A stretch of DNA of 62,392 bases from an uncultured virus (IMG/VR IMGVR_UViG_3300010355_001052) (lineage: Duplodnaviria > Heunggongvirae > Uroviricota > Caudoviricetes). The notes under the pieces were generated by a model that did not search any database, had not been told where the DNA came from, and was given only the letters and a program-made list of their open reading frames with translations. Below are positions 14,305 to 56,042 of this stretch, in pieces. The stretch is taken from IMG/VR virus record IMGVR_UViG_3300010355_001052; one strand, 5' to 3'. The first letter of the stretch is position 1; every line of letters starts with the position of its first letter. A program made the position numbers and the translations under genes.

Positions 14305-14997
14305 TTATCTTTCTATTATAAATTCCTTAAATGTAATTTTTTTAAGAATCTGTCTAGGTTTACCATAGTAAAATTTATGAATTAAAGTATCTCTTTTTAA
14401 TCCTAGAAAATCTTCCACTTCTCTTTTACTATTGAAAGTAATTATCTTATTATCTGGTAAAGTTACTTTTACAATTTTACCTTTGGACCTAGTACCTCTT
14501 CTTGTTTTTTGGTAATCTTTTAAAGCTTGAAGAGTTTTGATACTCATGGGTCTGGGTATACCTTTTGTAGCAATACTCCTAGCTAATTTATGAGCTTCTG
14601 TTTGAGATCTTCCTAATAAGGATCCAGGATTACCCCTTCTAGCATCTGCTTTTCTTTTTTGAGCTTCAGGTGTTAATGTTAATAGTGAAAAATCTCCACC
14701 CTGGGAAAAATTGTATCCGCAATTTCTATCTGTAGATTTATATAATTTAATCCAGTGTATTTCTCTTTCATTAAGTAACTCTTCTAAACATTCTTCTATA
14801 GGTGTAATTAAAAGAGTATGAGTACAATTAAATGCTCTTTGTAATTTTATGTTTGTATGATTTCCTCTTTTAAGAGCTGCTAAATGTTCTTTACTTCTTT
14901 TTTGATAATTTCTTGTTTGACCTATATAGATAAGTCCTCTATCTTTATTCAAAATAGAATAAATACATGATCCTGTATATGTATTATTTAAAATCAT
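14305..14997 (-). CDS. Free-standing GIY-YIG homing endonuclease
   Basis: CIYSI...IYIGQT...R.KEH...H.N..LQ.AF...E.HWI...GYN catalytic motifs plus a basic NUMOD-like C-terminal region. Confidence 0.85.
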   Translation of the reverse strand: MILNNTYTGSCIYSILNKDRGLIYIGQTRNYQKRSKEHLAALKRGNHTNIKLQRAFNCTHTLLITPIEECLEELLNEREIHWIKLYKSTDRNCGYNFSQGGDFSLLTLTPEAQKRKADARRGNPGSLLGRSQTEAHKLARSIATKGIPRPMSIKTLQALKDYQKTRRGTRSKGKIVKVTLPDNKIITFNSKREVEDFLGLKRDTLIHKFYYGKPRQILKKITFKEFIIER

Positions 14998-15668: not shown

Positions 15669-16246
15669 ATCTCAAATTCATTATATTCTTCTGTAATAAC
15701 TGGGGTATTTTTAATTGCCCATTCCTTTTGTTTACTCTTATGAAAAATTTTAGATATACTTTTCATATTGTCAACCTGTAAATACATCTTCCAGTTATCC
15801 GGATAAGATGCAGATACAGCTCTTGAGAATTTTCTATTAGCTTCAAATTGCCAAAGATCTCTATGTTGGAACTTATACTTAATTGCAAAATTTGTATAGA
15901 AAATTTTAGCTAAATAATTATCTGACTCAAAATTTCTATGTCTTACTCTTTGTTCAACCTCTGTAGATAATCTATAATCTACATTGAATTTTTTAGGTGA
16001 AGGGCAAGTCCCAATAAAAACATAACCTAGTGTCTCAGGAAACTCTACACCATCTCTTGTATTTATTACAGCATTCCAAAGTAACTCATTGTATGTTTCA
16101 ATTATCTCTCTTAAACTAGAATCAGAGAGTTCCTTATACTTAGGGAACTGTCTTCTAAATTTTCTGAAAAAAGATTCATCAAGTAAAGTAGTTCTTTCTA
16201 CACGGTATCTAGGAGCATTAAGATTTGGTTTTTTGATCTTTAGCAT
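15665..16246 (-). CDS. IHF/HU-like DNA-binding protein (crAss gene-53-like)
   Basis: GVEFPETLGYVFI HU-like turn, basic composition, conserved position upstream of the ring genes. Confidence 0.5.
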   Translation of the reverse strand: MLKIKKPNLNAPRYRVERTTLLDESFFRKFRRQFPKYKELSDSSLREIIETYNELLWNAVINTRDGVEFPETLGYVFIGTCPSPKKFNVDYRLSTEVEQRVRHRNFESDNYLAKIFYTNFAIKYKFQHRDLWQFEANRKFSRAVSASYPDNWKMYLQVDNMKSISKIFHKSKQKEWAIKNTPVITEEYNEFEI

Positions 16247-16320
16247 GATGATGAGATATTCTAATTACAATATACAAAAAATTTTTGAAAGTTTAAAGAT
16301 AAACTTTTATTAGTTAAACG

Positions 16321-16388
16321 CAAAGACCCGGGTTTTATCCCGGGCCTCTACCTGTCAGTCACGCTATACCAACAAACCGTGACATTTT
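16321..16388 (-). ncRNA. Putative 3'-UTR small RNA: seed hairpin followed by an intrinsic terminator
   Basis: RNA reads GUCACG-GUUUGUUGGUAUAG-CGUGAC UGACAG, then GGCCCGGG-AUAAAA-CCCGGGUC-UUUG. It is complementary to several late-gene leaders (see findings). Confidence 0.6.
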
Positions 16389-16391
16389 ATC

Positions 16392-17567
16392 TTATGGACA
16401 TCCTGGAGTTGTTGCAACAGTAACATTTGCTTCTGCTGCCCAATACCATGAATTATCTGTAGCACATACACTTTGTGGAACTCCAACAACAACATTTACT
16501 GTAAGTAATTCACCTGTTGTACAGCTTGTATAATTAACATCTGCATCACTACCTACTGCTGTGAATTGTACAGTTACACACTCATAGCAACATCCACCTG
16601 CTACTACTGTCCATCCTGTTGATGGAGTAGGTGTTGTAGGACTACATTTTTTATATATAAATCCAAGATCTTGAGGATCTACCATACCAATTGGGTTACT
16701 ATCACAGTCATTACCAAAATCAAATGTTGGACATTGACCTAGATTTGCTTCAGCTGTTGCTCTTAAAAAAGGACTTGTAGCAACAGTTACTGTAGGTAAA
16801 GAAGAATATCCAGAACCAGTATTTGTTACTACTATGTATTGAATCTCTCCAGTATTTACTGTGTCAACAGTAATAATTACACCAGCACCTGATCCACCTA
16901 GGTTTACGTTATTAAACTCAAATGTATCTGCTCCTGCGTATCCTGTACCTGGAGCTGTATTAGAAGCAGAAATTGCAACTGCAGTAATTACACCTAAAGT
17001 TACAGTAACATTTAGTAACGCACCTACACCGGCACCAACTAAGTTAACAGCAGGTACATTAAAGAAAGTAGCTGAACCACCTCCATTATAACCGGTACCA
17101 CCATTTGTAATAGTAAAAGTTTTAAGACCACCATCTCCTACTACACCATAAGCAGCTGCTGCAGTACCACCTCCACCAACAATTGTTAATGCTGGGTTAC
17201 TACCTACAGTATATCCTCCACCAGAAGTAAGTAATGTATATGATGGAATATCAACAGTACTACATACTACATCCCATTTATCACATGTTGGATCTGGAGT
17301 AAATATTACTGAGAAAGCAATTCTATCAGTCAATGAACCTTCTACTTGACATACAGCCTGTACATAACCATCAAAGATTACTTGATCACATGTATCATTA
17401 TCAACCGTTACTGGTATAATTGCTTGACATGCTGCTCCATTACCGGCGCATATTACTATTGTTGTACAGTCATAGGCTCCCGCGCCTCCTGTTCTCCAAC
17501 ATACACGGTGACCACCAATGTAGTTGCTTATAAAGTTTACTGTAATTGTTCCTGGAACTGGTGCCAT
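16392..17567 (-). CDS. Cys-rich virion protein with GSGY/GTGY beta-repeats
   Basis: Repeats SGGGYT, GGTGYN, PGTGYA and TGSGYSSLPTVTV resemble baseplate/fibre repeats. Confidence 0.5.
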   Translation of the reverse strand: MAPVPGTITVNFISNYIGGHRVCWRTGGAGAYDCTTIVICAGNGAACQAIIPVTVDNDTCDQVIFDGYVQAVCQVEGSLTDRIAFSVIFTPDPTCDKWDVVCSTVDIPSYTLLTSGGGYTVGSNPALTIVGGGGTAAAAYGVVGDGGLKTFTITNGGTGYNGGGSATFFNVPAVNLVGAGVGALLNVTVTLGVITAVAISASNTAPGTGYAGADTFEFNNVNLGGSGAGVIITVDTVNTGEIQYIVVTNTGSGYSSLPTVTVATSPFLRATAEANLGQCPTFDFGNDCDSNPIGMVDPQDLGFIYKKCSPTTPTPSTGWTVVAGGCCYECVTVQFTAVGSDADVNYTSCTTGELLTVNVVVGVPQSVCATDNSWYWAAEANVTVATTPGCP

Positions 17568-20386: not shown

Positions 20387-22162
20387 CTAATAATCTAATA
20401 TTGCTGATACACTACTAGGTGCTAAACAATATACAGGAGTAAATACTTGTAATATAGCTTCTACACATGTTGGAGGACAACACTCTTGTAAATAACATTT
20501 ACAAAGAGCCGGATCATAAATAGCTTTAAAGTCCAGTAATGTCTTTTTAATCTCCCAATTAATCCAATCATTTTCACAACATATAGTTAGACCATATCTA
20601 GCTACTAACATTTGTGAATACATGCTATCAGCAAAATTGCAGTTAATTCTTTCAGTGTATTCCGGAGAACAACCTGCAGTATAGTATCCTGGTTTTACTC
20701 TTCTTGGATGTAATTCTAATGGAGGAGGAAGTGGTACCGGTGGTAAACAAGCTACGCATGTAGCAAAACTTTCTATTACCTCTGATACACAAACTGATCC
20801 TGTACAAGTTAAAGATTCTATTACTTGCCAGCATGTATCAGGACATTCTGATAGTTTAACTACTTGTCCTACATATTGTAGGAAATCATCACTAGTGACA
20901 ATTGTATTTGTAACATCTGTACAATCTATTAGAACATAACATTTAAGTGCACATTCTTGACATGTATCATAGATGTTTAGAAAAGGAAGAGTTATTGATC
21001 CTTCACAACCTTGGGTTTCTGTAATAGAAAAACAGGTGCATTCTGTGAGGTCAGGGTTTGATATCTCACCCGGGCAGATTCTTATAACATCTCCTACATA
21101 AAGACTTAAGTCATTATTAACTACAATTGGGTCTAAAGAACCGGTACAAGGAGTTAATGTATAGCATGTATCTCTGAAATAAGTCCATACAGCATTTACC
21201 CCATTAGGTTGTACTTCAGAAAGTACTCCTGAAAGGGCTCCATTGTTTGTAGATAATATACTTGAGTCCTGACTAAAGAATCCATTCTGATTAAAATAAA
21301 ACTGACCAGCTAATTGATTAGGAAATCCTATACCTCCAATATCTAATATGGACCATCCAGATCCACCATTAATTGACTTAACGCGTTCTCCTAAACTACC
21401 AAATCCCCATAGCTCTTGGTCATTAATCCATGTAAGATGTTTACCATTACGCTGAACAAAATGATAAACATTATTCCAAGTAATACCACCATTTAAAGAT
21501 TGGAATATAGCAGGTTCCCCTAGAACTACAATAGTTTGCTGATCAGATGAAAGATGAATTCCACGCGCATTTACTAACTGATCTAGTACACCATCATAAA
21601 TTATATTACCGCTATTTAAGATAGACCAGGTAATACCACCATCAATGGTTTTAGCTACATGTGCTTCTAACCCTACTACACCAATAGTTGGTGTAATAAA
21701 ATGTAATGATAATACATCCGGAATCTTTGGAGCAGATAATGGAAAAGGCGGTAATGCTGGAAGTTGACTAGTTAAATTAAAGGTAAGACCTCCATCCGTA
21801 CTAATTGCTACATAACCATTATGACCTGAGACCATAATGTTATTTGAATCTAATACATGTACTTCATACCAGTTTAATAATCCTTGTACAGTATTATTTT
21901 GATAATTTCCACCCGGGATATACCAAGTAGCTCCAGCATCAGTAGAAACATAAATACCAAAAACAGATCCTGAAGAAGCACCACGTCCTACAGCAAAAAC
22001 TTTATCTCCATTATCTGGATCAGTTTCTACATCAAATAAAGGATATGAAGAAGTATTGGGTATAGTTAATGCTACTGAAACATCAACCCAAGGAGTAGTT
22101 AAATCAACTAGTTTCCTTACAGTACCCTTATCTCCAACAGTATATGTTTTTGCTATAATCAT
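20387..22162 (-). CDS. Virion protein with BNR/Asp-box beta-propeller (YCF48-like) and Cys-rich C-terminal domain
   Basis: Repeated STDAGATW, STDGGLTF, TIDGGITW, SLNGGITW and SINGGSGW Asp-boxes. Confidence 0.65.
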   Translation of the reverse strand: MIIAKTYTVGDKGTVRKLVDLTTPWVDVSVALTIPNTSSYPLFDVETDPDNGDKVFAVGRGASSGSVFGIYVSTDAGATWYIPGGNYQNNTVQGLLNWYEVHVLDSNNIMVSGHNGYVAISTDGGLTFNLTSQLPALPPFPLSAPKIPDVLSLHFITPTIGVVGLEAHVAKTIDGGITWSILNSGNIIYDGVLDQLVNARGIHLSSDQQTIVVLGEPAIFQSLNGGITWNNVYHFVQRNGKHLTWINDQELWGFGSLGERVKSINGGSGWSILDIGGIGFPNQLAGQFYFNQNGFFSQDSSILSTNNGALSGVLSEVQPNGVNAVWTYFRDTCYTLTPCTGSLDPIVVNNDLSLYVGDVIRICPGEISNPDLTECTCFSITETQGCEGSITLPFLNIYDTCQECALKCYVLIDCTDVTNTIVTSDDFLQYVGQVVKLSECPDTCWQVIESLTCTGSVCVSEVIESFATCVACLPPVPLPPPLELHPRRVKPGYYTAGCSPEYTERINCNFADSMYSQMLVARYGLTICCENDWINWEIKKTLLDFKAIYDPALCKCYLQECCPPTCVEAILQVFTPVYCLAPSSVSAILDY

Positions 22163-22365
22163 TAGGTGTTGTTATTACTAACAGGTTTTGTATAAAGAAC
22201 TGACACAACTGTAGGCGCTGTAATATTTTTAGGTTGAGTAGTATTCTTTTTTAATGCAGCTTCATAAGAAGCAAGACACATAGTACAGACTGCTGTACCA
22301 TTTGATGCTGATCTCTTTTGACATCCGCATGTTAATTTACTTTTACAATTTGTGCAAGTACTCAT
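22162..22365 (-). CDS. Small Cys-rich (CxxC...CGC...CxxC) protein
   Basis: Six Cys in the first 30 aa; abuts the downstream gene. Confidence 0.6.
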   Translation of the reverse strand: MSTCTNCKSKLTCGCQKRSASNGTAVCTMCLASYEAALKKNTTQPKNITAPTVVSVLYTKPVSNNNT

Positions 22366-22387
22366 ATTATGTTGGTTTATTAGTTGC

Positions 22388-26007: not shown

Positions 26008-27024
26008 TTATTGATGCCAGTACTTTTCTACTTTAGTAGTTAAATCAAGTAGAACATTGTCATTTAATGGGTTCTTTAAAAAGGCAATACAATCAGATAC
26101 ATTACGCCCCATCATAACACTTGAATCAATATGGTAAATGAAACCATCAGATTTTAATGCAATGAATTTATAGAATGTAGCATCTTTAATAATTGATTTA
26201 ATTTTTAAAGTCTCCATATCCAAAGCTGAAGAATCAATAAATGATTCAGCTGCTCTTTTCAAGTTAGTCTCAACTCCTTCACCATTGATGAATTTATCCA
26301 TGTTGTCATAGATAATATCATTTGGTGTAGATTTTTTATATTGAACACTATTACCATCTACCACTTTGGCTACATAGAATAGTTTATTCTGATTCTTGTT
26401 AAACAATTTCTCTAGTTCAGAAAGAGCTTTATTTTTAAGTTTCTTAACCTCAGTCTTAGTAGATACAGTATCAACATACTTATCTAAGAAGAATTTAGGA
26501 GATACGGCCGCGCTTCTTGCAGCTTCATAACTAGTTGCAATCATTGAGAATCCACCTGCTTCAATAGCATATAATTTAATTAAATCATATGGATCTTTAG
26601 CTGGGTCAATTAAAACTTGCTGATTCCCACAACGTATTACTATTCTATTCCAGAATTCATTGTTATCTGGTTTAAGTAGTTTTACTTTATTCCAAAAATC
26701 AGGATCTGCAATATCTATAATATTTGCAGCAAGCTCTTTCTCTAGTTGAGCTACTACTGTTCTGATTTCTTTAACTTTTGCTTCACGTAATTCAGTATCT
26801 TGAATAAGTTTTACTTCTGGAGCAAATTCATTTAATCCGGTAATATAACGCTGTATACCATTACGGTCAATACATGCTAATTGTTCCTCATGAAACACAC
26901 CATCATATAATGACATGTTGTATTTCTCTAACCCTAGATTACTAGAATTAGGATCAAAGTAAGGTTTAATGGAAATAGTTCCACTCTTTACATCATAAGG
27001 TGTTGATACAATTGTTAAGCTCAT
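26008..27024 (-). CDS. Conserved crAss-like protein downstream of MCP (gene-75-like)
   Basis: 338 aa; assigned from synteny directly after the MCP gene. Confidence 0.5.
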   Translation of the reverse strand: MSLTIVSTPYDVKSGTISIKPYFDPNSSNLGLEKYNMSLYDGVFHEEQLACIDRNGIQRYITGLNEFAPEVKLIQDTELREAKVKEIRTVVAQLEKELAANIIDIADPDFWNKVKLLKPDNNEFWNRIVIRCGNQQVLIDPAKDPYDLIKLYAIEAGGFSMIATSYEAARSAAVSPKFFLDKYVDTVSTKTEVKKLKNKALSELEKLFNKNQNKLFYVAKVVDGNSVQYKKSTPNDIIYDNMDKFINGEGVETNLKRAAESFIDSSALDMETLKIKSIIKDATFYKFIALKSDGFIYHIDSSVMMGRNVSDCIAFLKNPLNDNVLLDLTTKVEKYWHQ

Positions 27025-27065
27025 AATTAGTTATTGTTGGTTGGTTATTATTGACTGACAAATTT

Positions 27066-27098
27066 AAAAAAAAGGGGAGAGATTTTACCTCTCCCCTT
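27066..27098 (-). terminator. Intrinsic terminator after MCP
   Basis: AAGGGGAGAG/CTCTCCCCTT stem with a T8 run on the minus strand. Confidence 0.8.
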
Positions 27099-27105
27099 AC
27101 TATTA

Positions 27106-28731
27106 TTAGAATGATCCTCCAGTGATTGGGTTTCTCATTACAATTTTTAGGACTTTAGTTGGATCCTTCACCCAGATTGCAGGCATGGTTTGTGTCATCA
27201 TTACACGGTAACCATTGAACTGACCTGAAGATTGGAAGCCTTGGCTTCTTCCCATGTAATCCATAGTACCATTTTGATACCACCATTTTAATTGATTATC
27301 CCAAGATAATTTCAACATGAAAATGTTATCATTACCTGTATCAGTAATATCAAAAATGATAAAACTGTATGATGATAACGGGTTACCATCAATGATAGGG
27401 TTCTCAATATCATTTGTATGTAGGTTATCAAATGCCGGGTTCAATACAAATTTCACATTTGCCAAGAAAGGAATAACATAACTTGTGAACGCGAATCCAA
27501 AGTTAAGATCCATAGCAGAACCTGAAATAGCACCAATACCTGCATTGTTAGAAGCCTGAATTACAAGACCTGAGTTTACAGCTTCACGTTTAATAGCTTC
27601 ATTTACTAAACGCATACCACCCATACCTGTTTGAACAATCAATTGTCTCTTAGGATCTGGACCTTGGAATTCCACACGACCAGCGTAGAAGTTGTAGATC
27701 TCTCCACGGAATAACTCCAATGAGAAGTTAGACTTGTTGTATACTCTTTTGAAAGAGTTATCCAACTGTTTCCATAGACCCACAGATAAACGCATATCAT
27801 CTGGACCATCTTGTTTAATACGTCCACCATGACCCCACATTAAGTAAGATTCAATGTCTGTAGCAATTTTAGTCAAGTGAGCTGCTTCCATTGTAGTAAG
27901 GAAAGTACGTGTTAAAGTACCATTCCCAATAGCACGCTTAAGATAATCTTTACCCATTTTGTTTGCCATATCCTCAATCTTAGTGATTGATGGATCCATG
28001 GTTTTATCAAAATTTCTCCAGATCTCAGTAACCGGAACTGTACCGTCAGCATTCATACCACCTTTTAACATCATGTCAGCTTTAGAGCTGATAGAGTAAT
28101 GTACGTGAGCCTCAGCACCACCTACGAAGTTGTAGAATTCACGGAATCCAGCTTTAGTCTGAATATCAGAGAATCTCTCACCATACTCTCCACGGGCAGA
28201 ACCTTTACGGAATAGTTTAGTTTGAGGAGTTAGATACTTGTTATCAAGGAACTTGTAGTTGTCGTTGTTTACCAACTGAACTGTATAGATAAATCCATCC
28301 CCTAAAGGTAGAATATCATCAGCAGTGATATACATCTCAACACCGTTGTATTTGTCATAAGTGATGATATCACCATGTCCAAAATCACGCTTGTTAACTT
28401 TAATTTTGAAGGTTGTACCATCAACACCTTTTGCAAGGTTACCTGGTTCAATATCTTCAACAATATAGGCTAGATCCTGAGATACAGGAGTTTGCCATTT
28501 ATACTCACCTCTGGCATTATCTACCATGATGATGTTTTTACCACCAAATGATGAAAGTTGATACAGAGGCATCTCTACCTTCTGTGTCATAGCCCAGATA
28601 TCCACCGGACCTAAGTCCATTGGCTCTGCGTCTTTCAGCATGTTCACTAGGTGGTAAGAATCTACGTGGGAACTTGCATTGTAGTTCGTGTCACGTAGAA
28701 AGAGACCATTGTTTAAAACTGGAGTGCTCAT
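27106..28731 (-). CDS. Major capsid protein
   Basis: 541 aa, order terminase-portal-scaffold-this gene, high-expression codon bias, strong terminator, GLWKQL and WVKDPTK motifs of crAss-like MCPs. Confidence 0.85.
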   Translation of the reverse strand: MSTPVLNNGLFLRDTNYNASSHVDSYHLVNMLKDAEPMDLGPVDIWAMTQKVEMPLYQLSSFGGKNIIMVDNARGEYKWQTPVSQDLAYIVEDIEPGNLAKGVDGTTFKIKVNKRDFGHGDIITYDKYNGVEMYITADDILPLGDGFIYTVQLVNNDNYKFLDNKYLTPQTKLFRKGSARGEYGERFSDIQTKAGFREFYNFVGGAEAHVHYSISSKADMMLKGGMNADGTVPVTEIWRNFDKTMDPSITKIEDMANKMGKDYLKRAIGNGTLTRTFLTTMEAAHLTKIATDIESYLMWGHGGRIKQDGPDDMRLSVGLWKQLDNSFKRVYNKSNFSLELFRGEIYNFYAGRVEFQGPDPKRQLIVQTGMGGMRLVNEAIKREAVNSGLVIQASNNAGIGAISGSAMDLNFGFAFTSYVIPFLANVKFVLNPAFDNLHTNDIENPIIDGNPLSSYSFIIFDITDTGNDNIFMLKLSWDNQLKWWYQNGTMDYMGRSQGFQSSGQFNGYRVMMTQTMPAIWVKDPTKVLKIVMRNPITGGSF

Positions 28732-28769: not shown

Positions 28770-29996
28770 TTATCGTTTAAAGAAATCCTTTGTTGCTCTA
28801 GGAATTCTATTATTTGGTCTTGCTTCAACTTCTTCATCTTCTACATGAGAAGCAATTTTTGCTTTCTCTTCAGATTTTAATTTACGTACTGTATCTGCTA
28901 CTACTTCTTTTTTAGTGATCTCACGTACTCTATTTTTGTATCCATCTGGATCAGCAAGAAGCCAAAGTGCCTCTGCAACTAATCCATGATTAGGTTCTAC
29001 AAATTGATATTTTTCTAGTAAGTGACCAAGAAGGTTAGTTTGTTTTCCGGAAACTGATGGGTAATTAGGTTGTACTAATCCGGAGAAAAGAAGATTCTGT
29101 GTTTTTTTGTCTAGTTTAAGACCGTTGAGTTCAGCTGGCTCAAGTGTTTTGTAGATGTTATCCATATACATTTGAGCTTGTTTACCTTGCTGATCTCTTA
29201 ACTTAGCTTGTTGCTGAAGTTTATATTGAACTTGTTTTTCAGATAAAGCATCTAATTTTGGTTTAAACTTATTAGCTTTTGCTTCAAGTTCTCCTCTATC
29301 ATCCCAACCATCAATCTCTTCCTCAATTTCTTCAGCTGTACCAAAGTTAGTAGATTGAAGATAACTACGTACTATATTTTTTTGATCATGTTCATTAGTA
29401 GGATCAAGAGCTTTTACCTCTTCTACTGCAGCTAAAGTTCTAAAAAGACCTTTTAAATCTTGTCCACCTTCAGCTAAATATTTACCGGCATATTGAACTT
29501 CTTCCGGTAAATTACTCCAGAACTCTGTAGCTACTTCATCTCTGAGTCTATTTTTTTTATCCTCATCATTAGCTTCAAAAAGCTCCTGGAAATCTTGAAC
29601 TGTATATTTCTCTAATGGTTTATCATCATCAAATGGTACAAGAAGCTTTTTCTCAATTAGTGAATTAGCTAATTCAATTAAACCATTTTTTTCTACTTTA
29701 GGTCTACCGGTATTAGCTTTTTGTGTATCATCATCATTGATTAAATCATCAATCTCTGATGAACTAACTGGTGTAATTTTAATTTCACCATTCTCATCTA
29801 ATTCTGTAGTTGTAGCAGCGGGTGGTGTATCTTCCTCTTTTTTATTTAAGAAAGATAAATCCTCACCAGAAGGTTGACTAAAAATATTCTTTTTAGGTTC
29901 TTCTGGTAACATGACACTTGCAGCACCCGGATTAAGGATTGCCTCAAGATCTAAATCTTGTATTTCTACAACGGTATCTTCTAAAGGTTTACTCAT
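28770..29996 (-). CDS. Acidic scaffolding-like protein (crAss gene-77-like)
   Basis: D/E-rich disordered N-terminus and coiled coil; lies between portal and MCP. Confidence 0.65.
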   Translation of the reverse strand: MSKPLEDTVVEIQDLDLEAILNPGAASVMLPEEPKKNIFSQPSGEDLSFLNKKEEDTPPAATTTELDENGEIKITPVSSSEIDDLINDDDTQKANTGRPKVEKNGLIELANSLIEKKLLVPFDDDKPLEKYTVQDFQELFEANDEDKKNRLRDEVATEFWSNLPEEVQYAGKYLAEGGQDLKGLFRTLAAVEEVKALDPTNEHDQKNIVRSYLQSTNFGTAEEIEEEIDGWDDRGELEAKANKFKPKLDALSEKQVQYKLQQQAKLRDQQGKQAQMYMDNIYKTLEPAELNGLKLDKKTQNLLFSGLVQPNYPSVSGKQTNLLGHLLEKYQFVEPNHGLVAEALWLLADPDGYKNRVREITKKEVVADTVRKLKSEEKAKIASHVEDEEVEARPNNRIPRATKDFFKR

Positions 29997-30127
29997 AACT
30001 GTTTTGGTTTTGTTGGTTGGTTATTGACTGACAGCTTTATATAATGTAACAAATTTATAGAAATAAACTTTATAAATTTACTAAATAAATCCCCCTATTA
30101 AAAATAGTTGGCATTATATAGCTAACT

Positions 30128-32915: not shown

Positions 32916-35111
32916 TTATTTTATATTTTTAAAAGCACTTCTAGGAGGTCCTTGTCTATAATTAGTACCAGACCTTCCCATATTCTTAAACAAACTCTTC
33001 TCTAATTTAAACAAATTTGCGGACTTTTCCAAGTGTTTCTTGTCTGTAGTCTCTAGTCTTTTTCTATAACCACGGTTTGCTTGTTGTACTTTAGCAAAAG
33101 AAATTAGTGCTGCTAAAGATACTAATCTATCCACGTTGACACCATCTGCATAACCTTCCATCTCTACTAAGGCCATCATATCTGGTATCCTTTCTATTCC
33201 ATAAGTTGTCCTAACTATAGTACCATCTTCTTTAGTCTCATGATCAATTTCTTCTTGAAGAAACTGGATTAAATAACTAAGTAAGTGAGCTTTAAAAAGA
33301 TTACCGGTATTCTTCCAACCATATTCTTGATATACGTTATTATTAGAACCTAAGTCTTTTAAGAACAAAATTTGATTCTTAGGTACAAGATATTTTTGTT
33401 TCTTCTTGGCAATCATGTACTGGATAAAAAGAGAGATGTTATTCTCTACAATTGTCCAGGCATTATACCACTCAATGATCATCTCTAGTACTTCATGAGT
33501 TTTCTGGAGATCATCATATCTACCACACCAAGCAGCTACAAGTTTATCTTTTTCTATGAAACTTTCTGTTTTATCACCATCTAGTCTAGTTACCTCTACT
33601 GGATTCTTATAAACATAAATAGAACAAAGAGATTCAGAAGTAGTAGTTTTTCCTTCTGAGACCGGATCCACAGAAGCAAAATATGTACCCCACTCAGCAT
33701 TCTTATCTGGTCTTTCCCATACTACTAAGACACCTGTTTTATCTTCTGTTTTCTTTGTAATAGGAAACTCCATGATAGGTAGCTTGGTAGTTATTTTAGC
33801 TTCTATCTTGCCGGTTGCATCATGAGAAAGATTGATAAACTCATAAGCATAATCTTTATCTGTTATTCTTCTTTTTTGAGCAGCTACTAAATGCTGAGGG
33901 AATAAAGAGATTGTTCTATGTGCAAAAGCTTCAGCTATATTACGCGGGCGCTGAGAGATCCTTAATTGATAAATATTTGGTTCTAATGTTTTCTTTTCAT
34001 GTGCTCTAATTTCATCAAGAGATTTTAGAGCTTCTTCTACCATGGAATTACCAAACTCATCTATAAAAGGCGGCATTGACCATTGCTCTGGAATAAATAA
34101 ACCGGCTAAAGCTATTGTACCTTTATCATCAATTAGATCAGTTTCTACAGGATAGATATCATTCTCTACTGGATACTTGATCATAGTTTCTAGAGGCTTA
34201 CATGAATCTAATTCCCCTACTGATCCTGCCGCTATAAAAATACCGGTTACAATATTACCCATTTGGAGTGCCGGCATAAGGTACTCTTTAGTCTTATCCA
34301 TTGTAGGAGCAATCCCAGCTTCCTCATAAAAGAAAATTCTACAATCACCCCCAACCCCTGCTGTTGGATCCTGATCTAGAGTCATACCTTGAATTACACC
34401 TTTACCTCCTATAATCTCAGGTCTTCCATTAACCTCTTCTTCAATTTGCTGTTGCCACATCAGAATCTTATTAGGATTCATAGGACGGTACCAAGCAGTC
34501 TTACTATCTAAGAATGATTTATATTCACTTAAAAATCTCCATGTTCCTTTATCATTGATCTTATCTTTAAGAGAGGACCCCATTTTTAAAATAGGAGTTT
34601 CTTCAAACCATATCTGATTGATCAATTTAGCAGCATGAAAATAAGAAGAAGCTATCTGTCTTTTCTTAAGAATAGCACAATGTTTAAAATTGAGTTCTGC
34701 TAATAGCTCATAAAGAGCCATGTGATATTGCGTATCCCAAACTTGTGGGAAGGCAAACTTTTTCTTCATTTTATCATTGATTGGAAGAAAATTTAACCAC
34801 ATGTAATATTCTCGGGCAAGATACCATGTTTTACCATTAGCTCTAAAGATTGCACCATATCTACATTTTTTCTTCTGATCTTCCCAATAGTCTCTATAGT
34901 CTTTAGAACCTTCTTTAGAAATACAGTAATAACCTCTACTGTCGTATATTCTAGCTTGTTCATTAAATACATGAGTAGTCTCATCCCATGCATATTGTCC
35001 CGGTACTTTAAATAGGGTTAGAATAAAAGCTGCAAATTCTTCTCTTGTAGAAAAACTTGTTTCTGTCCAATTACCTTTTTCCCATGTAGGGACAACTATA
35101 AAATTATCCAT
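32916..35111 (-). CDS. terL: Terminase large subunit
   Basis: KKRQIASSY Walker A-like motif, FFYEEAG Walker B, RNase-H-like SVDPV...ENN...DRL nuclease domain. Confidence 0.9.
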   Translation of the reverse strand: MDNFIVVPTWEKGNWTETSFSTREEFAAFILTLFKVPGQYAWDETTHVFNEQARIYDSRGYYCISKEGSKDYRDYWEDQKKKCRYGAIFRANGKTWYLAREYYMWLNFLPINDKMKKKFAFPQVWDTQYHMALYELLAELNFKHCAILKKRQIASSYFHAAKLINQIWFEETPILKMGSSLKDKINDKGTWRFLSEYKSFLDSKTAWYRPMNPNKILMWQQQIEEEVNGRPEIIGGKGVIQGMTLDQDPTAGVGGDCRIFFYEEAGIAPTMDKTKEYLMPALQMGNIVTGIFIAAGSVGELDSCKPLETMIKYPVENDIYPVETDLIDDKGTIALAGLFIPEQWSMPPFIDEFGNSMVEEALKSLDEIRAHEKKTLEPNIYQLRISQRPRNIAEAFAHRTISLFPQHLVAAQKRRITDKDYAYEFINLSHDATGKIEAKITTKLPIMEFPITKKTEDKTGVLVVWERPDKNAEWGTYFASVDPVSEGKTTTSESLCSIYVYKNPVEVTRLDGDKTESFIEKDKLVAAWCGRYDDLQKTHEVLEMIIEWYNAWTIVENNISLFIQYMIAKKKQKYLVPKNQILFLKDLGSNNNVYQEYGWKNTGNLFKAHLLSYLIQFLQEEIDHETKEDGTIVRTTYGIERIPDMMALVEMEGYADGVNVDRLVSLAALISFAKVQQANRGYRKRLETTDKKHLEKSANLFKLEKSLFKNMGRSGTNYRQGPPRSAFKNIK

Positions 35112-38534: not shown

Positions 38535-38943
38535 CGTGTATGAATTTATAGTTTAATAGAATATTACCTGTAGTCTGAATTTTAAGATCAGGATTTAAAC
38601 TTATTTTCTTACGCCCACGACCTTCTTTAAGAAGGAGTTTTTCTCTCTCGATCTTAATAAGTACATTCCTAATGGTTTGTGGTGAGGATTCTGGCTGTTT
38701 CTCTTTAACCTTATCTGGGTTAACCTTCCAAGTTTTTAACTTTTCAGCTAATCTTTTATCAGCCATATCATTACAAAAGTCTGTTTGTTCAGTAGGTCCT
38801 GATAGACCTAAACTGACTAAACATTCTAATTCCAGATCACTTAGTACAATATTGTTTATTGAACAGTGAGTGATCAGCTGGAACCTGATGATATCATCAA
38901 GTCCCATCTGAACCTTTTTATCTACTACATTTACTTGTGCCAT
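38515..38943 (-). CDS. Winged-helix protein (RepL-like candidate)
   Basis: SPQTIRNVLIKIEREKLL...ISLNP; position next to IHF as in crAss-like phages. Confidence 0.4.
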   Translation of the reverse strand: MAQVNVVDKKVQMGLDDIIRFQLITHCSINNIVLSDLELECLVSLGLSGPTEQTDFCNDMADKRLAEKLKTWKVNPDKVKEKQPESSPQTIRNVLIKIEREKLLLKEGRGRKKISLNPDLKIQTTGNILLNYKFIHVESQKA

Positions 38944-38968
38944 GTTGGTATATGACTAACAGTATTAA

Positions 38969-39571: not shown

Positions 39572-39846
39572 ACTGTTTCAGTCTTAAGTTTTTTAGCTAA
39601 TTTTTCAATGTTCTTAGTTTGAACATCTTTTTCCTCTTTAGGTTGAGTCTCAGCTACCATATTAGCAAGTCTAATATTCATAGTTACTCTTCTACATCTA
39701 GCTTCTTCAATATCTGCTAGGAGAGTTTCATATCTTGACTGGAGCTCAAGTAAAGGATTTTGAAGAGTATAATACTCAGTCATACGCTTACGCATCGCCT
39801 CTACTTCTGCAGGGGTCATTTCTCTTTCATCTGTTGGTTGTGACAT
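39568..39846 (-). CDS. Coiled-coil hypothetical protein
   Basis: 92-aa ORF preceded by a TACATTTG promoter-like element. Confidence 0.6.
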   Translation of the reverse strand: MSQPTDEREMTPAEVEAMRKRMTEYYTLQNPLLELQSRYETLLADIEEARCRRVTMNIRLANMVAETQPKEEKDVQTKNIEKLAKKLKTETV

Positions 39847-43942: not shown

Positions 43943-43965
43943 ATTGTTGGTTTATAAATTATAGA

Positions 43966-46509: not shown

Positions 46510-46578
46510 GATGAGAATAATTATTATCTATATACAATATAATAAATTATTCTGATAATAGCAAGAAAAAAAATTTAG

Positions 46579-46649
46579 TTGCCTGAGAAGGGATCGAACC
46601 TCCATTCTATGGACCAAAACCACATGTACTGCCATTATACGATCAGGCA
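46579..46649 (-). tRNA. tRNA-Gln(UUG)
   Basis: TGCCTGA/TCAGGCA acceptor stem, TGTGG-TTTTGGT-CCATA anticodon arm, GGTTCGATCC T-arm. Confidence 0.85.
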
Positions 46650-46660
46650 TTATAATCTGT

Positions 46661-46732
46661 TACTCTGAAGGGATTTGAACCCCTAGTCTTCTGATCCGTA
46701 GTCAGAAATGTTATCCAGTTACACCACAGAGC
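46661..46732 (-). tRNA. tRNA-Arg(ACG)
   Basis: GCTCTG/CAGAGT acceptor stem, TCTGA-CTACGGA-TCAGA anticodon arm, GGTTCAAATCC T-arm. Confidence 0.85.
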
Positions 46733-46736
46733 AATG

Positions 46737-46811
46737 TGGGTGATAGAAGAGGATTGAACTCTTGACCTCCGGCTCCACAAACCGGCGCTCTACCTACTGA
46801 GCTATAGACCC
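46737..46811 (-). tRNA. tRNA-His(GUG) with a mispaired acceptor stem
   Basis: Canonical D arm (GCTC/GAGC), CCGGT-TTGTGGA-GCCGG anticodon arm and T-arm. The acceptor strands GGGTCTA and CTATCAC pair poorly. Confidence 0.65.
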
Positions 46812-47926: not shown

Positions 47927-48301
47927 AAAAATAAGTGTTGGTATAAAGTAAAGATAGTAACTTCTAATTTATCCCACCTAAAATAAATAGGAATTTACTG
48001 TGTGGATTAAAGAGGTGGGGGTGATCTATAATTTGCCCCCGGGTCATTTACAAAAAGGGGTGTACCCCCATGATGTTGTGGTAGAGGAAGGGAAATTCCC
48101 AGGTGCTATAGGAAAAAGCATTCTTTTTTCTAGAAAATGTTTCACTCTGGGAGAGGCACTGCTCGTCTGCTCTGCAGACCTCGCAGCAGACCAAGACATC
48201 TGATGATGTCAGAGGAGCAGAGCAGAGACATGTTCTTATCTACATCTCATGGTATGTTATCTATAATATATAGCCCATCATTCACATTAAAAATATACAC
48301 T

Positions 48302-54255: not shown

Positions 54256-54426
54256 ATGAAACTTGAAAAAGGTAATACACTAATAGTTCAAGAGAATTTT
54301 AGTATTACAAAAAAAAGATGTCAAGTCACAATAGTTGAGGTTAATGATCAAGATTTTTCTTGTCTAGTAAGATATAATACCGGATATGAAGAATGGCTTC
54401 CTATTAGTGCATTTGAAGGTTATTAA
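54256..54426 (+). CDS. 56-aa SH3/Tudor-like microprotein
   Basis: MKLEKGNTLIV...TIVEVN...LVRYNTGYEEWLPISAF*. Confidence 0.5.
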   Translation: MKLEKGNTLIVQENFSITKKRCQVTIVEVNDQDFSCLVRYNTGYEEWLPISAFEGY

Positions 54427-54510
54427 AGATCCTGTCAGGCTAAGCCAACAGAGAGTCAAATCGCGCCTGTATTGTTCAATTCCCATTGGTAGTATGGGCG
54501 CGAGGACTCA

Positions 54511-55943: not shown

Positions 55944-56014
55944 AACCTGTTAGTATAGGGGCAGTATACCGGCCTACAAATCCGGGGACAGAGGTTCGAC
56001 TCCTCTACAGGTTA
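55944..56014 (+). tRNA. Atypical tRNA, anticodon ACA (Cys?)
   Basis: AACCTGT/ACAGGTT acceptor stem, CCGG-C-CTACAAA-T-CCGG anticodon arm, AGAGG-TTCGACT-CCTCT T-arm. Confidence 0.6.
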
Positions 56015-56042
56015 CAATTATTAATCTTAAAACCTTATTATT

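Follow-up and report, generated by a model that had tools for sequence, protein, structure and literature searches.

The window analysed here, the whole 62,392-nucleotide (nt) stretch of the virus record IMGVR_UViG_3300010355_001052, comes from an uncultured crAss-like phage and encodes, in its tail-fibre region, a protein of 391 amino acids (aa) whose gene ends in a structured RNA element. The element occupies the 3' untranslated region (3'UTR; 16312-16391, minus strand) and consists of a 6-base-pair (bp) hairpin, a free UGACAG tail, a GC-rich hairpin and a U-rich tail, with 8 nt separating the TAA stop codon from hairpin 1 on the minus strand. The loop of hairpin 1 is antisense to a short tag, ACCAACA, which stands in the leaders of a few head genes. 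The gene and the parts of its 3'UTR are as follows:

16392..17567, minus strand: 391-aa gene, from the list of open reading frames (ORFs); its stop codon TAA lies at 16394-16392 and its 3'UTR carries the element
16378..16383, minus strand: hairpin 1, 5' arm GUCACG (sequence, consensus fold and covariation)
16364..16377, minus strand: hairpin 1 loop GUUUGUUGGUAUAG, antisense of the ACCAACA leader tag; its core GUUGGU is invariant in the family
16358..16363, minus strand: hairpin 1, 3' arm CGUGAC, whose UGAC doubles as part of the antisense of GUCAGUCA
16352..16357, minus strand: single-stranded tail UGACAG, antisense of CUGUCA in leaders
16316..16351, minus strand: GC-rich terminator-type hairpin with core GCCCGGG/CCCGGGU, loop AUAAAA and an interrupted U-rich tail (RNAfold and covariation)

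An earlier prediction made from the letters of this stretch (the original prediction) had described a minus-strand hairpin exposing UGUUGGU in its loop, followed by the UGACAG tail and a terminator. Both the sequence and RNAfold bore this out, the 80-nt element folding into two hairpins at -32.7 kcal/mol, and all other sequence statements of that prediction likewise held on re-reading the window. The mean unpaired probability was 0.72 for the loop, 0.71 for the UGACAG tail and 0.85-0.98 for the leader tag sites. A simple terminator scan did not flag the hairpin at 16316..16351, because the T-run behind it is interrupted (UCUUUGCGUUU); the T runs of relatives at this place are longer than in the window. 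On the plus strand, positions 16352-16383 read CTGTCAGTCA-CGCTAT-ACCAACAAAC, i.e. CTGTCAGTCA..TATACCAACAAAC, so that the motif at 16.35 kb has, as claimed originally, the opposite orientation to its targets, whose gene-sense tags are on the minus strand. The loop variant GGUAUAG, found in the window and its sub-clade, matches UAUACC leaders.

The 391-aa protein is weakly similar to virion structural proteins (PHROG matches at 5e-11). No Rfam family reached its gathering score in the window except transfer RNAs (tRNAs), and a search of 16150-16550 against Rfam gave nothing better than E 3.9 and no homology to GcvB.

Conservation and covariation of the element

A search of viral contigs with the 391-aa protein matched only two fragments of the same phage and no other relatives, and relatives were therefore anchored on the 338-aa protein encoded after the major capsid gene, which yielded 74 loci (50-100% identity). 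The position of the 391-aa gene is taken by a different gene in relatives; since the upstream gene thus differs, no conserved promoter precedes the element. The inverted copy of the motif was nevertheless found in relatives G002, G003 and G004, about 11-13 kb downstream of the 338-aa gene, and the layout of stop codon, hairpin, tail and terminator hairpin is kept, close relatives also retaining the promoter-like block of the next gene.

A pattern scan of viral contigs returned 48 loci, 28 of them with this layout (23 distinct), while the remaining 20 were GC-rich coding matches that were removed by eye before alignment; a broader motif scan gave chance matches for the most part. A covariance model (R1) was built from the 23 distinct loci and run on the contigs of 50 relatives, where it matched at E<=0.01 in 30 and gave a single strong match (E<1e-4) in each of 23. 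Among the strong matches, the one in G047 covered only a terminator. All nine records that are at least 90% complete contain the element, eight of them by the model, loop included, and G047 by pattern and inspection (GGAGG-UUUGUUGGUU-CCUCC). There is one copy per genome, just before the terminator, with hairpin 1 standing 6-10 nt ahead of the terminator hairpin in every copy, and its GUUGG loop core complements the tag of a few head genes.

Pairing was assessed on 42 distinct aligned rows. In this alignment, which was fitted to the model and therefore favours structure, 98.5% of 607 cells were paired and 14 of the 15 pairs changed on both sides; none of 500 shuffles reached the observed value, and slid controls were 33-54% paired. 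The terminator hairpin contained nine covarying pairs. Stems of different lineages are wholly different yet paired (GUCACG/CGUGAC, GUCGCAG/CUGUGGC, AGAGGG/CCCUCU and GGAGG/CCUCC), and the loop stays UUUGUUGGUUU-like across lineages, reading UUU(U)GUUGGUUU in distant relatives. Its core, GUUGGU, was invariant in 41 distinct copies.

The sense of the RNA was judged from 41 rows, a spurious match at 27020-27114 being left out. Read in the gene-sense direction, hairpin 1 showed 204 Watson-Crick, 23 G-U and 6 unpaired cells, against 28 unpaired cells on the other strand; the corresponding values for the terminator hairpin were 301, 65 and 2, against 66 unpaired. The G-U pairs therefore fit the gene-sense strand only, which is evidence against both a DNA site and an antisense transcript. 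We hold with high confidence that the conserved, structured 3'UTR RNA is real. The original prediction had staked itself on conservation in relatives, which is found in the nine near-complete records and in the covarying stem, and on covariation of the seed with the leaders, which is not systematic beyond a 6-8-nt core, the loop core never varying.

Among GenBank phages, a DNA search gave one 85-base match and the 338-aa protein gave none. Judged by capsid protein, the closest phage in culture is Leptolyngbya phage Lbo-JY46 (PP438436.1, L336; 28% identity over 99% of the protein), and the 36 kb of it that were examined held terminator-like matches only, with no element and no tag in leaders. 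Because this nearest cultured relative is a cyanobacterial phage, a Bacteroidota host should not be assumed for the clade.

Leader tags and their predicted pairing with the element

The tags lie a few to about 30 nt before start codons, are unstructured, and in their two-part form have a spacer of 3 to 10 nt between the halves. Their C/A-rich sequence (AACCAACA) faces the G/U-rich seed of the loop (GUUUGUUGGU). Predicted pairing was ranked over the 81 starts in the window by a fold-aware cofold score (ddG), which charges for opening each RNA's own structure. The sites considered are:

30011..30034, minus strand: leader tag of the 408-aa scaffold-like gene, CUGUCAGUCA (30034-30025), AUA, ACCAACCAACA (30021-30011); start codon at 29996
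27035..27060, minus strand: tag in the leader of the 338-aa gene, which follows the major capsid gene; two-part motif UGUCAGUCA..ACCAACCAACA
38943..38962, minus strand: leader tag of the 142-aa gene, CUGUUAGUCA-UAUACCAACA, with one T-for-C change, running into AUG
22370..22376, minus strand: seed-only ACCAACA in front of a conserved 67-aa ORF (22162-22365), 4 nt from its AUG, from sequence
43945..43951, minus strand: seed-only site before the 105-aa gene, outside the 14 best by ddG
47936..47945, minus strand: seed site UAUACCAACA before the 132-aa gene, outside the 14 best by ddG
39832..39838, minus strand: ACCAACA within codons 3-5 of the 92-aa gene, from sequence

The original prediction had counted at least seven targets. 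The seed is indeed present at all seven sites, while strong two-part complementarity was found in three only, the other four sharing a seed of 7-10 nt; the copy inside the 92-aa gene may be a chance match. At 38943 the two helices that had been described were confirmed as 10 Watson-Crick pairs plus 10 pairs with one G-U, the last A of the tag being the A of ATG. This tag falls within the 25-nt gap after the preceding stop codon, and a two-part tag in an intercistronic gap was also seen for the 138-aa orthologue of the 142-aa gene in G003. As a 25-nt gap leaves no room for a promoter, the tag is not a promoter element, which together with the varying spacer fits a role at the RNA level. The name 'scaffold' for the 408-aa gene is based only on its position after the portal gene and on its highly charged sequence, and Pfam and PHROGs gave no family for the 408-, 338-, 142- or 67-aa target proteins.

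The tag is over-represented where the original prediction had placed it. Counted on both strands, ACCAACA has 21 copies, versus 10.2 ± 3.1 in shuffles, with 21 reached in none of 100. Of its 11 copies in gene sense, six fall in the interval -40..+15 around 60 ORF starts, versus 0.28 expected (P 5e-7), and the observed count was matched in 0 of 2000 sets of shuffled upstream stretches. The other half of the motif, TGTCAGTCA, was not enriched in the window when one mismatch was allowed (13 versus 16.8 expected), and all three exact copies of it are followed by ACCAACA within 20 nt. When start regions from seven genomes were pooled (886 regions) and every arrangement of four A with three C (35 in all) compared, AACCAAC (38) and ACCAACA (28) came out on top, the median being 5; AAACCAA occurred 56 times versus a median of 13. 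Either AAACCAA or AACCAAC ranks first among the enriched 7-mers in G054 and G013 and third in G033, and these words rank 9-41 in the other genomes, behind AT-only words. Shine-Dalgarno-like words before starts were not enriched (4-11% versus 9-14% in the coding background). The complement of the loop, (A)AACCAAC(A), is sequence-specific as a tag and over-represented shortly before start codons. Across relatives the tagged genes are orthologous, namely the genes that follow portal (scaffold-like) and the capsid gene, an ORF of about 60 aa and a gene of about 120-140 aa, and the orthologues of the ~60-aa ORF are tagged in all seven genomes listed.

By ddG the three two-part leaders stood out, with the 408-aa leader as the best of the 81 starts (-21.4 kcal/mol), the 142-aa leader second (-16.9 kcal/mol) and the 338-aa leader third (-15.2 kcal/mol). 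The next best start reached -10.2 kcal/mol, and the median was -3.2. The 67-aa ORF scored -7.0 kcal/mol, and the other seed-only sites fell outside the best 14. Over seven genomes, the scaffold-like leader was the best predicted partner in five, i.e. in the window, G003, G002, G054 and G013 (408 orthologue).

Beyond the seed, UGACUGACAG, made up of the tail and the 3' stem arm, mirrors CUGUCAGUCA, and in this sub-clade a second tag, GUCAGUCA, placed at the 5' end of these leaders or close to it, is complementary to the element; the 3'UTR is the best non-self complement of the 5' segment of the leader in the window (41,582 windows). Tails of the UGACUGAC type accompany GTCAGT leaders in seven of eight genomes, and none of the 16 genomes without such a tail has a GTCAGT leader. 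The preference is also seen when leaders and 3'UTRs are exchanged between sub-clades, those of sub-clade A scoring -26.2 with 3'UTRs of A versus -19 with those of B or C, and those of sub-clade B -18.8 with B versus -14.1 with A and -15.0 with C. An extension of the complementarity in sub-clade C was considered and rejected, as no preference was seen and 17 of 300 shuffles were at least as good for G018. Sub-clade B carries a terminator apex, GUGUUUCUAC (genomes G009, G013, G017, G011, G028, G016 and G010; loci L272, L274, L275, L277, L271, L282 and L281), which complements GUAGAGAUAC at the 5' end of the leader of the scaffold-like gene with two G-U pairs and ranks 21st of 82,730 windows in G013; this leader-to-apex complementarity is suggestive only.

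A candidate anti-leader RNA and its alternatives

With moderate confidence, we favour the reading of the 3'UTR element as an antisense 'anti-leader' RNA that would pair with leaders devoid of a Shine-Dalgarno sequence, and by which the phage probably tunes the translation of a few head-assembly genes. Transcripts of the 391-aa gene would end with the GUUGGU-loop hairpin, the free UGACAG tail and the terminator hairpin, and this 3' end of the tail-fibre messenger RNA (mRNA), or a fragment of about 75 nt cut from it, would contact the leaders in trans, loop to leader. The duplex would then spread into the second helix, opening the short stem, whereby the ribosome-loading region of the 408-aa (scaffold-like), 338-aa and 142-aa genes would be hidden and their translation lowered, so that the output of head proteins would be tied to tail-fibre operon expression. 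Accumulation of the RNA, pairing within the cell and repression, rather than stabilisation, as the outcome are inferred. At 408-type leaders a TGnTATATT box is conserved 5-12 nt before GTCAGTCA, and the tag should therefore be at or near the 5' end of the mRNA. Action in trans is more likely than a 13.7-kb transcript closing on itself, because a strong terminator follows the capsid gene and tagged leaders are found out to 47.9 kb.

Several observations weigh against pairing as the function of the element. In G033 and G027 the 408-type leader is not among the top start regions and pairs with its own 3'UTR no better than with shuffled ones (z -0.1 and +0.3). Plain RNAduplex failed to single out the leaders, unrelated 50-nt windows reaching -30 to -36 kcal/mol, because chains of small helices score well; for this reason the fold-aware score was used, and it alone separates leaders from other windows. 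No compensatory change from seed to target can be seen, since the loop core is invariant, and G004 and G054 have an A 5' of GUUGGU, yet their head-gene leaders have ACCAACA or ACCAACC. Covariation between the base that precedes GUUGGU and the one that follows ACCAAC was rejected as not systematic. The co-occurrence that speaks for the second helix probably goes back to no more than one or two events in evolution, and G033, a 96%-complete record, retains UGACUGAC without any GTCAGT leader. Finally, a box like TAnnTTTG, the Bacteroidota -7 box, overlaps the tag at the 338-aa leader, so that part of GUCAGUCA may lie upstream of the start of the 338-aa transcript and be missing from it.

The invariance of the loop could instead be due to recognition by a protein of a site in the nascent or mature RNA, for instance a nuclease, a protein that stabilises the 3' end, or a factor that sets how far transcription reads through the adjacent terminator into the ring and muzzle genes, with complementarity to the leaders being secondary. 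The 11-nt loop is invariant even where the head-gene leaders match it over 7 nt only (G033 and G027), the hairpin stands 6-10 nt ahead of the terminator hairpin in every copy, and the next operon has its own conserved promoter, which would make the locus a transcription-unit boundary. We nonetheless consider this explanation unlikely, as the exact complement of the loop is the leading sequence-specific word of start regions and the second, lineage-specific complementary segment is ordered as an antiparallel duplex expects; moreover, no candidate RNA-binding protein was identified in this analysis. The same pairing might also take place in cis, a single long late transcript closing into a 10-14-kb loop as its 5' leader meets its 3'UTR. 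Leaders and 3'UTR do share strand and direction of transcription, and both in the window and in relatives the distance from the leaders down to the element is about 11-13 kb. Yet the strong terminator after the major capsid gene intervenes, as does a further hairpin with a T run near 22.95 kb, and the tagged leaders at 38.9-47.9 kb pose the problem that a single 3' end cannot close on several 5' ends, which makes a cis arrangement quite improbable.

Very unlikely, in our judgement, is a motif acting at the DNA level, be it a site used in either orientation by a regulator or recombinase, or the relic of an inverted duplication of 'terminator + leader'. Such a motif would account for the identical two-part TGTCAGTCA..ACCAACA in both orientations, and the RNA model also matches the plus strand at 27020-27114 (23.7 bits, E 6.5e-5), where the terminator of the capsid gene and the 338-aa leader form a mirror-image 'terminator, then tag'; this match hints at an origin by inverted duplication. 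Such a duplication may explain where the element came from, but not its conservation across about 50-77% protein identity. In addition, the two halves stand anywhere from 3 to 10 nt apart, distant relatives keep only the loop while the stem covaries, and the G-U pairs are compatible with one strand only. An orientation-independent DNA site, named in the original prediction as an outcome that would speak against it, thus fits poorly. Site-specific inversion of the Gin/Hin type was considered separately and rejected, since all genes between 16.35 and 30.03 kb are co-oriented and only the loop is conserved in distant relatives; no match to a recombinase family was obtained among 24 + 12 window proteins in two family searches. 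Hardly credible is a plus-strand copy serving as promoter or leader for an antisense RNA against the 3' end of the 391-aa gene, an idea suggested by the position of the tag at the 408-type leaders of relatives, 5-12 nt after the TGnTATATT box and near a transcription start. Here the place of a plus-strand -10 box is filled by the GC terminator hairpin, the window has just a 9-codon ORF behind it and relatives lack one entirely, wobble pairing points to the opposite strand, and a sigma-70-type scan of the plus strand was empty at this place.

An extension of the anti-leader reading, to which we give little credence, is a two-way cross-talk between mRNAs. Abundant head-gene leaders would pair with the nascent 3'UTR by the terminator (in another sub-clade, with the terminator stem) and so set read-through into the ring and muzzle genes, while the scaffold-like gene would have its loading tag, which lacks a Shine-Dalgarno sequence, covered by the 3'UTR. 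If true, this would be a phage-autonomous RNA circuit balancing head and tail production without a protein regulator.

Base-pairing small RNAs (sRNAs) derived from 3'UTRs are known from bacteria, such as those of the CpxQ, SroC, DapZ and MicL type. Like these, the element lies between the stop codon and the mRNA's own putative terminator and has a conserved single-stranded seed directed against several start regions. Unlike them, it is phage-encoded and would be aimed at the phage's own late genes, its seed is held in a hairpin loop, and it is without an evident Hfq-type module. Antisense RNAs that start pairing via a hairpin loop are represented by CopA/CopT, hok/sok and RNA I/RNA II, with which the element shares a loop-displayed seed facing an unstructured target and a predicted second helix that needs a short stem to be opened; those RNAs are encoded in cis, with full complementarity to a single target, whereas the anti-leader RNA would be trans-encoded, with short two-part complementarity to several. 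UTR-derived sRNAs are listed in the transcriptome map of Bacteroides thetaiotaomicron (PMC7366714), and the sRNA GcvB silences C/A-rich (ACA) translation-enhancing elements (PMC3879156). The likeness to GcvB lies in a G/U-rich seed set against a C/A-rich element upstream of starts, that element itself probably promoting ribosome loading. It does not extend to homology (no Rfam match), the targets here are without a Shine-Dalgarno sequence, and the RNA is part of a 3'UTR whereas GcvB is a free-standing gene.

Although crAss-like phages are among the most abundant phages, to our knowledge almost nothing is known of how they control late gene expression. The original prediction had been put forward as new for this group, and the portions of the literature returned by our searches indeed described no sRNA and no occurrence of this motif there, the matching passages of the crAss001 transcriptome paper giving timing classes only (PMC8375218). 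If the anti-leader reading is true, crAss-like phages would possess a phage-encoded base-pairing RNA with a conserved small regulon, and (A)AACCAAC(A) would be a phage-specific ribosome-loading tag replacing the Shine-Dalgarno sequence. Tag and anti-tag could then be used as an orthogonal translation switch for hosts that do not use Shine-Dalgarno sequences.

Genome setting and further observations

All genes from 1 to about 47.9 kb are on the minus strand. The features that frame the element and its candidate targets are:

32916-35111, minus strand: terminase large subunit, crAss-like phage gene
30128-32914, minus strand: portal, crAss-like phage gene
27106-28731, minus strand: major capsid protein, crAss-like phage gene
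27072..27098, minus strand: strong intrinsic terminator after the major capsid gene (12-bp stem, then a T run), between the leaders and the 3'UTR element
16269..16306, minus strand: conserved promoter-like block AAGTTTAT..TTTAAA-17-TATATT, before the next gene (193 aa), which is followed by ring and muzzle genes

A further hairpin with a trailing T run is located near 22.95 kb. Downstream of the element, Pfam families identify crAss ring proteins 2 and 1 and the muzzle protein. Between the genes of ring protein 2 and ring protein 1 there is a gene resembling a GIY-YIG homing endonuclease (14305-14997, minus strand; Pfam PF01541, 6.8e-12).

A late promoter-like block stands at 30035-30072 and at 16269-16306 (both minus strand), before the gene after portal and before the 193-aa gene, respectively. 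Its elements are, in order, AAAGTTTAT(T)T, TAAAYTTG or TTTAAA, and TG-n-TATATT, and the block is kept across relatives (L005-L076) at about 50-77% protein identity. Genes for tRNAs of Gln, Arg and Cys were found at 46578-46804 (minus strand) and 55944-56015 (plus strand), a partial third tRNA-like stretch at 46747-46804 being called by Rfam alone. In the rightward arm, CCTGTCAG-GCTAA-GCCAACAGA (54411-54450, plus strand) loosely resembles the two-part tag and surfaced only in the non-discriminating duplex scan. The 9-mer TAGCCCATT is present in five exact and four one-mismatch copies between 48271 and 50391, all on the plus strand and amid short ORFs that run rightward; words contained in it belong to the 7-mers most enriched in start regions, and the repeat may be an early promoter or a regulatory repeat.

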